The translations under genes were made by a program, and so were the position numbers. Below, one piece after another: positions 2,209 to 11,045 of a DNA stretch of 64,000 bases. The notes beneath the pieces are model-generated. The model did no database searches and was not told the DNA's origin. It saw only the letters and a list, made by a program, of their open reading frames with translations. The first letter of the stretch is position 1. The number at the start of each line of letters is the position of its first letter. The stretch comes from a virus: the IMG/VR virus record IMGVR_UViG_3300035670_000049, positions 56,337 through 120,336 of that record. One strand, given 5' to 3'.

Positions 2209-2243
2209 AAAAAGAATTAGTGACGGATAACCGGAGCCGTCAC
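2209..2243 (-). terminator. Intrinsic terminator-like hairpin
   Basis: GTGACGG-10 nt-CCGTCAC stem followed by TAATTCTTTTT on the minus strand. Confidence 0.6.
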
Positions 2244-2476
2244 GGAAGCATTCTCTTAGGGTTATTGCTTATCCCGACAAGCATTTATATAGCGACAACT
2301 TTCTTCCGCTTCTCTTGCCCCTATCCCAGCCATTTCTCATGGCAGTAGTCGATAGACTTCTTATATGATGGAGTTACCCTAATCCTACCAATTGGAGGAT
2401 GTATAGGCATCATATAAGTTGGGACACTCACCCAACCTTCGGCAAGAGTATTGCGCTATTTATTTAGGCCATTCCT
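2244..2476 (-). ncRNA. Candidate structured ncRNA or cis-regulatory leader (unassigned class)
   Basis: Nested helices 2289-2294/2454-2459, 2312-2319/2441-2448, 2360-2370/2408-2418 (11 bp perfect), 2418-2423/2431-2436, 2321-2325/2351-2355, 2329-2333/2339-2343, 2267-2272/2277-2282; no ORF; flanked by promoter and terminator. Confidence 0.65.
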
Positions 2477-2482
2477 AGCCTC

Positions 2483-2511
2483 ATTGTAGCACATATCACA
2501 GGATAAAGCAA
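2483..2511 (-). promoter_or_regulatory. Sigma70-type promoter
   Basis: TTGCTT-17 bp-TACAAT with extended TG. Confidence 0.75.
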
Positions 2512-10244: not shown

Positions 10245-11045
10245 TTGGAGAAAGGAATGAATGAGAATTTGACCCAAGATCAAGCAGAGAGCATTATCTC
10301 AAAAATCAAGAAATTGATGGCTCTATCTAAGTCATCAAATGAGAATGAGTCTGCTGCTGCTGCTGCTAAGGCGCAGGAATTGCTCCTTAAGTACAATGTG
10401 GAAATGTCTCAAATCAGTAATACTGAAGTAGAGACAAAGCTTCTAAACGAGTTTTTTGAACTCTTTGATAAGAATGAGATTCGTTGGAAGTTGCATCTTG
10501 CACATTCTTGCGCCAAGGCAAATCTCTGTTTTGGTGTATCCTCTGGAAAGGGAATTTACTTCCTAGGTAGGAAGCATAATATCGAAATTGCTCAGTATAT
10601 GTATGAAACTACTGCTAATGACCTAGAAAGAATTGCAGAAGAGAAATGGCAGCAGATTCTACATCTACGTGATCTACAGGCACAATTTCCCCAAGTACAT
10701 TTGTTCTCGGACCCAAGTTTGGAAGTTGTACACGGTAAAACGTGGAAAGCCTCTTTCTATGTAGGGGCTGTTAAAACGATCCGAGAAAGGCTTGAAGAAA
10801 ATCTTAATGAACTAACCATTAATAATGATAATATGATGGCTCTGGTAACGACTGAGAAGCAACAACTAAAAGTTTTTGTGGATCAGCAGTTTCCGCGTCT
10901 TACAAACGGACAGGCGATGCGATACAATTATCGCAATGCGTTTGAATCAGGCCGTAGGGCTGGACAGGACATTCAATTCCGGCGCGGTGTGGGTGCAGGG
11001 GGCTCATATAGCGGCGGAAATCTTTTAGGAGAGGGGAAAAAATAG
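10245..11045 (+). CDS. DUF2786-domain protein (likely start 10257)
   Basis: KIKKLMALS.S.NENESAAAAAKAQELLLKY N-terminal signature. Confidence 0.8.
   Translation: MEKGMNENLTQDQAESIISKIKKLMALSKSSNENESAAAAAKAQELLLKYNVEMSQISNTEVETKLLNEFFELFDKNEIRWKLHLAHSCAKANLCFGVSSGKGIYFLGRKHNIEIAQYMYETTANDLERIAEEKWQQILHLRDLQAQFPQVHLFSDPSLEVVHGKTWKASFYVGAVKTIRERLEENLNELTINNDNMMALVTTEKQQLKVFVDQQFPRLTNGQAMRYNYRNAFESGRRAGQDIQFRRGVGAGGSYSGGNLLGEGKK

Follow-up and report, generated by a model that had tools for sequence, protein, structure and literature searches.

A 64-kb window, which is the whole stretch of DNA analysed here, forms the second half of the 120,336-bp IMG/VR virus record IMGVR_UViG_3300035670_000049 (genome G000). 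Within a leftward-reading block of small genes, this window contains a 360-bp gap (2196-2555) that holds no open reading frame (ORF) of at least 60 aa. On the minus strand, the gap is followed by an 89-aa ORF and then, in order, by an 85-aa ORF, a 111-aa ORF, a 133-aa cytidine/dCMP-type deaminase, a Fic protein and an HNH nuclease. An initial annotation had proposed for this gap either an undescribed structured phage RNA with its own promoter or an attenuator gating the deaminase-Fic-HNH genes. We found that the observation is confirmed and that its reading is partly supported. Residues 2448-2312 are a real and previously undescribed RNA domain and family, a four-way junction whose stems covary among relatives, and both the covariation and the lack of an Rfam match support a novel phage RNA behind its own promoter; the attenuator did not hold up in relatives. 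The RNA of the gap would be about 255 nt long, starting near 2476-2475 and ending at 2220-2209.

A covarying four-way junction

The junction and its parts lie on the minus strand as follows:

2312-2448, minus: four-way junction domain, identified by covariance models R1 and R2, covariation and shuffling z-score
2448-2441 with 2319-2312, minus: helix P2, CTCTTGCC paired with GGCAAGAG
2440-2437, minus: junction strand J2/3, GAAG
2436-2431 with 2423-2418, minus: helix P3, GTTGGG/CCCAAC
2417-2361, minus: arm P4, including CCTA/TAGG and ATCCT/AGGAT, with a bulge on its 3' side at 2377-2371
2360-2356, minus: junction strand J4/5
2355-2321, minus: arm P5, CTATC (2355-2351) paired with GATAG (2325-2321) and capped by GCCAT/ATGGC
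2320, minus: junction strand J5/2, a single G
2371-2429, minus: tertiary pairing of the P3 loop GAGU (2429-2426) with the P4 bulge ACUC (2374-2371), recognised from the pattern across homologues

P2 and the three arms that it closes are those drawn in the initial annotation; each is present in the window, and covariation in relatives backs the junction that they form. One correction was needed, in that C2418 had been assigned to two helices. The region folds better than dinucleotide shuffles (z = -3.55 over 276 nt), and the junction domain reaches z = -4.37 against shuffles. Moreover, the centroid fold of the junction domain alone is identical to the four-way junction as first drawn; the minimum free energy fold of the full 272 nt (-84.7 kcal/mol) differs from the earlier drawn fold (-65.0 kcal/mol).

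Homologues of the junction were found by structure. R1, a covariance model made from the window sequence alone with the helices of the initial annotation, gave a full-length match to relative G001 (40 bits, E about 1e-9), and this copy is syntenic, lying 600 nt downstream of a homologue of the window's upstream gene. In L002, the G001 locus reached via the upstream 94-aa gene, the junction was detected by the covariance model only, and among relatives of this gene neither BLAST nor nhmmer found similarity to the RNA. R2, a two-sequence model, was then run against the whole genomes of six relatives and all related loci collected, the relatives having been reached through terminase and deaminase homology. 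R2 matched L029 (67 bits), a tandem pair in G007 (63 and 35 bits) and two copies in L078 (69 and 27 bits), and the window copy scores 172 bits against it. With filters off, R2 found no junction in L027, L028, L030, L038, the G005 locus or the G006 locus.

In an alignment of seven distinct junction sequences (A7), compensatory changes occur in 27 of the 45 pairs and 98.7% of cells are paired, counts that are inflated by the fitting of the alignment to the model but that exceed by a large margin those of controls in which the partners were slid by 1-3 columns (at most 5 compensatory pairs, at most 47% paired). P5 and much of P4 are wholly different in sequence among homologues and are still helical, and the tips of both arms can be as short as a few nucleotides or as long as about 100 nt. 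Three P4 tips bear T-arm-like hairpins, with GGGUUCGACUCCC and GGUUCGAGUCC in the P4 tips of L029 and G007. The order of the helices is cloverleaf-like, with P3 abutting P4 and P5 lying 1-2 nt from P2. J2/3 reads CGAAG in all seven sequences, J4/5 reads GNRG, and J5/2 is one or two G. Hence, since the junction strands (CGAAG, GNRG, G) hardly vary and every stem covaries, the junction is the likely working site.

The pairing between the P3 loop and the P4 bulge is found in all seven homologues and takes four versions: GAGU/ACUC, GGCUA/UAGCC, GGCUU/AAGCC and GGGAU(U)/(A)AUCCC. Complementarity within a sequence is 4-6 bp, which is longer than that across sequences except for near-identical copies. 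The window's own pairing of 4 bp is not significant alone, and its support is this cross-sequence pattern. The window copy thus has P2-P5 paired, GAAG present and the 4-bp GAGU/ACUC contact. Comparison of the region with contigs of four public runs (X3-X5 and X8) gave a near-identical locus relative from a freshwater run, in which the sole helix substitution (A2410 to G) keeps a G-U pair. The junction family is carried by a small lineage of uncultured, tRNA-rich phages of 105-120 kb.

The initial annotation had matched the RNA to no riboswitch, ribozyme, 6S, tmRNA, SRP or RNase P consensus, and Rfam 15 likewise gave no gathering-score match anywhere in the 64-kb window; the families unmatched include riboswitches, ribozymes, 6S, tmRNA, SRP, RNase P, GOLLD, ROOL, HEARO and C4. 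At E<=10, the interval 2100-2650 returned only palindrome noise from miRNA models on the promoter repeat. Six related loci yielded tRNAs and no non-tRNA family. ARAGORN found no tRNA or tmRNA at the gap, with junk calls only under relaxed settings, and neither ARAGORN nor the Rfam tRNA model recognised a cloverleaf (D, anticodon and T arms) in the window RNA.

Promoter, 3' module and 3' hairpin

Two overlapping features precede the junction:

2486-2535, minus: inverted repeat of 15 bp, arms 2535-2521 and 2500-2486 (covariation, alignment A2)
2483-2511, minus: sigma-70-type promoter TTGCTT-17-TGcTACAAT with an extended -10 (sequence and conservation)

The promoter stands where it had been annotated on the minus strand, with TTGCTT at 2511-2506, a 17-nt spacer and TACAAT at 2488-2483. 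Both boxes and the 17-nt spacing are kept in G005, G006, L027, L029 and L030; a promoter pattern search matched G006 only. Further TGTGCTAnAAT promoters occur elsewhere in the same genome, and the repeat-bearing promoter occurs once per genome. The -35 box falls within the loop of the repeat, whose right arm reaches across the spacer into the first bases of the -10 box. In an alignment of six relatives (A2), compensatory changes occur in 4 of 12 pairs, 91.7% of cells are paired, and the covariation score was reached by 0 of 500 shuffles. In L030, a compensated change in the repeat alters the -10 box itself from TACAAT to TAGAAT. Hence, the complementarity of the repeat is selected. The repeat is either an operator or a hairpin, perhaps for processing, in RNA reading through from upstream. 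A T4 MotA box was rejected because its spacing does not fit, as was a 5' hairpin at the transcript start, since its 5' arm would fall upstream of the predicted start site.

What follows the shared promoter differs among relatives. The window has the junction RNA, L027 and G006 have a different structured body, G005 and L029 have a protein gene, and L030 has almost nothing before its 3' elements. The alternative bodies are also well folded (z of -2.7 and -2.95).

Downstream of the junction lie the following:

2244-2310, minus: 3' module, comprising a local hairpin AGCGG/UCGCU (2310-2291), AU-rich CUAUAUAAAUGC, a hairpin at 2282-2267 and CCCUAAGAG
2240-2284, minus: possible but doubtful 14-codon mini-ORF, MLVGISNNPKRMLP, with its UGA stop within the 5' arm of the 3' hairpin
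2220-2243, minus: 3' hairpin GUGACGG/CCGUCAC with the 10-nt loop CUCCGGUUAU (alignment A1)
2209-2219, minus: U-run tail UAAUUCUUUUU (sequence)
1926-2205, minus: first gene downstream of the RNA, with ribosome-binding site (RBS) AAGGAG at 2205-2200, GTG start at 2195 and the 89-aa orphan ORF at 1926-2195

We found that a 65-nt module is about 95% identical in the window, in L030 and in run contigs from three unrelated studies; these contigs match only 2215/2222-2310 and have differing sequence on either flank. In the contig of run X5, the module continues into the 5' half of a tRNA. The first 30 nt of the module (AGCGGAAG..GCCGCUAUAUAAAUGC) are also present in L027 and L028. The other junction-bearing relatives lack it, which makes the module a unit separate from the junction. 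Exact and purine/pyrimidine-coded module patterns matched nothing in viral, metagenome and genome collections, and a spurious ORF across the module, used as a query for short contigs, also found nothing.

Several pairings had been drawn in this part of the RNA. The hairpin GCTTGT/ATAAGC at 2282-2267 is present as drawn. The outer helix of ATAGCG (2458-2453) with CGCTAT (2294-2289) is also present in the window, but it has no counterpart in the other junction-bearing relatives. GCGGAAG (2309-2303), put forward as one strand of an antiterminator or pseudoknot, is indeed complementary to CTTCCGT (2248-2242); however, this pairing is not conserved. It survives only in copies with about 95% identity across the whole module and is lost in L027 and L028, which keep the AGCGG/CCGCT hairpin. 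Its CUUCC partner is missing in L027, L028, L029 and G006, and the pairing overlaps the terminator stem by 2 bp. Each of the four genomic module copies has a local pairing of AGCGG with (C/U)CGCU around a loop of varying length, and this local hairpin competes with both the outer helix (CGCUAU) and the proposed GCGGAAG pseudoknot. Another candidate pseudoknot, AUAACC (2265-2260) with GGUUAU (2232-2227), was rejected; both changes in L030 break it.

The 3' hairpin had been read as a terminator. Its arms GTGACGG (2243-2237) and CCGTCAC (2226-2220) and the U-run are in place, the U-run (2216-2209) beginning 4 nt past the stem, with U at 5 of the 8 bases after the stem. The 7-bp stem has -8.6 kcal/mol and a loop of 10 nt, and a terminator scan did not flag it. 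In an alignment of seven relatives (A1: the window, G006, L027, L028, L029, L030 and L038), compensatory changes affect 2 of the 7 pairs, with 98% of cells paired; the loop is unchanged in 6 of 7, the other being L030 with one U-to-C, where the hairpin has diverged. There is one copy per genome in the window's genome and in G006, and the junction-bearing G001 and G007 have no such hairpin. A hairpin pattern search matched only G006, L038 (a contig of a metagenome-assembled genome, MAG) and a chance coding match, L026.

A U-rich tail follows the hairpin only in the window, L027 and L030 (3/7), and in these a protein gene is next. No U-run follows it in run X4 or in G006, L028, L029 and L038. 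In G006, tRNA-Ile(UAU) starts 8 nt past the hairpin stem, and in L028, L029 and L038 there is more non-coding RNA. Hence, since the U-run is present in only three of the seven aligned relatives, termination is not the conserved role of the hairpin. We read the hairpin as an element that may form and protect a 3' end and that may double as a leaky terminator where a protein gene follows. The hairpin as the end of a small protein (SVTAPVIRR) was rejected, with stops lying 0-4 codons upstream in the window, L028, L030 and L038. A search of the rest of the genome for the complement of the loop gave one 9-mer, inside the deaminase gene, which equals chance expectation, and GGA/CsrA-type motifs were not above chance.

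Gene-free RNA islets in the phage lineage

In G001 and G007, the junction starts at the stop codon of a 40-43-aa zinc-ribbon ORF (CxxC ... CPNC; L002 3709-3831 and L060 9596-9727), which ends exactly where the junction begins, and the L029 copy begins directly after the stop codon of a 112-aa gene. The zinc-ribbon ORF was rejected as a constant partner, as it has no homologue in G000. In G001, G007 and L029, 500-1000 nt separate the junction from the next gene, with other structured RNA domains between them. The junction pair of G007 lies in 1.1 kb without called genes (L060 9728-10834), which is found in 11 contigs from several samples and on which the gene calls of three sources (ENA, JGI and Logan) agree. 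This islet also holds a tRNA-Tyr-like element ending in CCA (about 10456-10547), missed by ARAGORN and scoring 23 bits against the tRNA-Sec model, and further conserved hairpins. G001 has 640 nt free of genes, with one further domain in common with L029. tRNAs adjoin homologous loci, such as tRNA-Lys in L027, and the gene block of one relative includes an RNA ligase.

The junction and the 3' hairpin occur independently of each other, and the next feature varies among an 89-aa orphan, a tRNA, a zinc-ribbon ORF and further RNA. The phage lineage keeps gene-free islets of 0.25-1.1 kb in which several conserved RNA domains, tRNAs and tRNA-like pieces are assembled differently in each genome; in the window, the RNA so assembled consists of junction, module and hairpin with a promoter of its own. 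Deaminase relatives L031, L032 and L035-37 are without all three elements, and the 89-aa ORF, as a search anchor, proved to be an orphan with no relatives.

Run X8, one of the three with a module match, provides a 252-nt sediment metatranscriptome contig (depth 20) that covers only this RNA. The contig stops two bases past the end of its match at 2222, that is, at the last base of the hairpin (2220). On its 5' side, the contig goes on past the match and retains GAUAGGGGCAAGA, which makes up the 3' strands of P5 and P2.

Other RNA elements were seen in these loci. An RNA domain of about 100 nt (UGUUGAGUAG.GAACAAC.CGAAGCAGUA ... CCUGUGGAUAUGG.CUACCGGACA) occurs at L002 4060-4165 and L029 745-835 and not in the window, and Rfam gave no match for it. 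A hairpin, UAGCGAGUCGGUCA...AAACCGA, recurs in differing surroundings (L027 306-335; L002 4033-4060 in G001; L060 9494-9530 in G007) and is another shuffled RNA module. After the 3' hairpin, L029 (890-1080) and L028 (122-370) have 190-250 nt more of well-paired non-coding sequence before the next gene, which in L029 has a 12-bp closing stem, AUAUGGAAGGGU/ACCCUUCCAUAU. L038, a 5-kb MAG contig labelled uncultured Flavobacteriaceae, bears the phage hairpin, some 380 nt more of non-coding sequence and tRNA-Leu, and probably represents phage DNA that ended up in a MAG bin. Given the phage's sigma-70 promoter and strong Shine-Dalgarno sites, a Bacteroidota host does not fit.

Proposed role and relation to known RNAs

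On balance, we consider it probable that the element is a stable, modular, structured phage RNA that acts through its fold and is not a sensor for the downstream genes. A stand-alone RNA is favoured because there is no constant downstream gene or terminator, the junction occurs in tandem copies and directly after ORFs, and its surroundings are rich in tRNAs. In this model, host sigma-70 polymerase would start at TTGCTT-17-TGcTACAAT, beneath the covarying inverted repeat. The first ~165 nt fold into a compact four-way junction locked by the P3-loop/P4-bulge pairing, and the last ~95 nt (module and hairpin) are a second unit, shuffled independently by recombination. The hairpin may define and protect the 3' end; with the U-run present here, it would probably stop part of the polymerases and free an RNA of ~255 nt. 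The remaining polymerases may read on into the 89-aa ORF and the deaminase-Fic-HNH genes; the downstream ORFs are probably reached in this way, and no other promoter is visible for them. Where a tRNA follows the hairpin, processing would leave the same 3' end. Such an RNA could be stable and act in trans, by binding a protein or an RNA, or by self-assembly as proposed for GOLLD and ROOL.

Some findings weigh against this proposal. The order of elements in the window (5' leader, hairpin, U-run, RBS) is the classic attenuator arrangement. The seven distinct junction sequences known come from one phage lineage, and several are closely related. Expression is hinted at solely by the contig of run X8, which derives from a relative and might reflect DNA carry-over. 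Lastly, in L027, whose deaminase is the most similar of any relative (95% identity), the shared promoter is followed by another body instead of the junction. Hence, the junction is dispensable at this site.

The attenuator arrangement is at the center of a cis-acting alternative, in which the junction is the aptamer of a riboswitch or attenuator and the module and hairpin, as its expression platform, determine how much transcription continues into the 89-aa ORF and the deaminase-Fic-HNH genes. As in transcriptional riboswitches, a promoter, a folded RNA with conserved junction nucleotides and covarying stems, a hairpin with a U-run and an RBS follow one another here, and invariant junction strands with covarying stems and a pseudoknot are a typical aptamer signature. 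Tandem copies, as in G007, are known for some riboswitches, and L030 has the promoter, the module and the hairpin with its U-run, followed by a gene. However, the genes after the junction differ in every relative, so that there is no constant downstream gene, and in G001, G007 and L029 the next gene is hundreds of nucleotides away, beyond other RNA domains. The U-run is absent after the hairpin in four of the seven aligned genomic relatives and in run X4, the sole proposed alternative pairing is not a conserved switch helix, and junction and hairpin occur separately. We therefore regard gating of these genes, as first suggested, as fairly unlikely. Attenuation by a leader peptide, in which ribosomes on the mini-ORF (2284-2240) halt at the UGA in the 5' arm of the hairpin and block termination, is very unlikely. 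The stop codon does lie within the stem, both substitutions between module copies are at third codon positions, and a 3-nt indel in L027 preserves the frame. Nevertheless, the frame opened by the AUG at 2284-2282 is 14 codons long in the window, 42 in L027, 7 in L028 and 82 in L030 (where this AUG is called as the start of an 82-aa protein), and these frames stop at positions that bear no constant relation to the hairpin. No Shine-Dalgarno sequence is at the proper distance, though the phage genes have strong ones, and L028 resembles the module in nucleotides but not in peptide.

Other explanations place the activity in the junction itself. We hold tentatively the idea that the four-way junction is a new class of functional RNA core and a movable module of uncultured phages; it would either bind a metabolite or protein as an aptamer or cleave itself, as a ribozyme that trims RNA/tRNA islets of the phages. 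A narrower version, in which the junction is a self-processing element, that is, a new self-cleaving ribozyme or an RNase P/RNase E substrate freeing the RNA/tRNA islet from upstream mRNA, appears unlikely. It would account for the short distance, a few bases at most, between the preceding stop and the start of the junction in three of the four genomic contexts, for the tandem copies among tRNAs that themselves need excision, for the small pseudoknotted fold with invariant junction purines and for the cloverleaf-like order of helices; but no Rfam ribozyme or tRNA model matches, the core has no conserved CCA or T-loop, and the window copy follows a promoter, so cutting is unneeded. We judge quite improbable a role as a tRNA-related decoy or scaffold, in which the RNA would imitate or bind tRNAs or the enzymes that handle them, for instance as a countermeasure to host anticodon nucleases. 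The constant association with tRNA genes and tRNA-like pieces, the T-arm-like P4 tips of L029 and G007, the tRNA-Tyr-like element with its CCA end in the G007 islet, the TadA label that one source gives to the deaminase of the downstream block and the RNA ligase of a relative all point in its direction. Against these, the window copy has no T-loop-like tip, tRNA models do not score the window RNA, and the link is by neighbourhood only. A structured spacer left over from recombination between phage modules, with no function of its own, would suit a mosaic locus in which unrelated sequence replaces the junction in L027 and G006. This is largely refuted and most improbable, since 27 compensated pairs, a pseudoknot that covaries and invariant strands require the fold to be under purifying selection.

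For a stand-alone structured RNA, the closest known systems in kind appear to be GOLLD and ROOL, large ornate RNAs found in phages and prophages. These RNAs are phage-encoded, often near tRNA islands, modular, of unknown function, and act as RNA on their own (10.1101/2024.12.08.627333). The locus resembles them in being a phage RNA islet with tRNAs, in its modular make-up and in its peripheral arms of variable length. Unlike them, it matches neither Rfam model, and its four-way junction with a loop-bulge pseudoknot is not the GOLLD or ROOL architecture. The window RNA is also ~255 nt with a core of ~140 nt, versus roughly 580-800 nt, although the gene-free islets of its relatives reach 640-1100 nt. 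GOLLD and ROOL are very large (>~500 nt), multi-pseudoknotted and form homo-oligomeric cages.

The PeSLs of T4-like phages combine an early sigma-70 promoter with a stem-loop at the edge of variable segments, and recombination at this motif explains cassette swaps (PMC4122927). The locus likewise has an early-type sigma-70 promoter and a stem-loop bordering a segment that differs between close relatives. In contrast to PeSLs, whose stem-loop lies just upstream of the promoter and which are many per genome, spread through hyperplastic regions, the repeat here spans the promoter and occurs once, and the cargo is RNA instead of orphan ORFs.

T4 also has small stable RNAs of unknown function, species 1 and 2 (RNA C and D), which lie in the phage tRNA region and are released by processing. 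The likeness to these is by description only, and those phages are unrelated to this lineage.

GOLLD/ROOL-type RNAs of phage tRNA islands are among the least understood natural RNAs, and the junction adds a compact family of ~140 nt from the same type of neighbourhood that is small enough for direct biochemistry. With clear covariation, a defined tertiary contact and few invariant junction bases, the family is directly testable. At this locus, RNA domains behave like gene cassettes, being exchanged within a frame formed by a conserved promoter on one side and a conserved 3' hairpin on the other. To our knowledge, cassette mosaicism of this mode has so far been described for small ORFs.

The phage itself is distant from cultured phages. 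Its best terminase matches are only 22-23% identical, and the window has no DNA match among INPHARED phages. The ends of the 120,336-bp record share a 127-bp repeat. Its 26 tRNA genes are all on the minus strand and all within the first 31 kb (G000 1-31310), outside the window, where R2 found no copy of the junction. Several gaps of 0.4-0.8 kb separate tRNA genes in that region.

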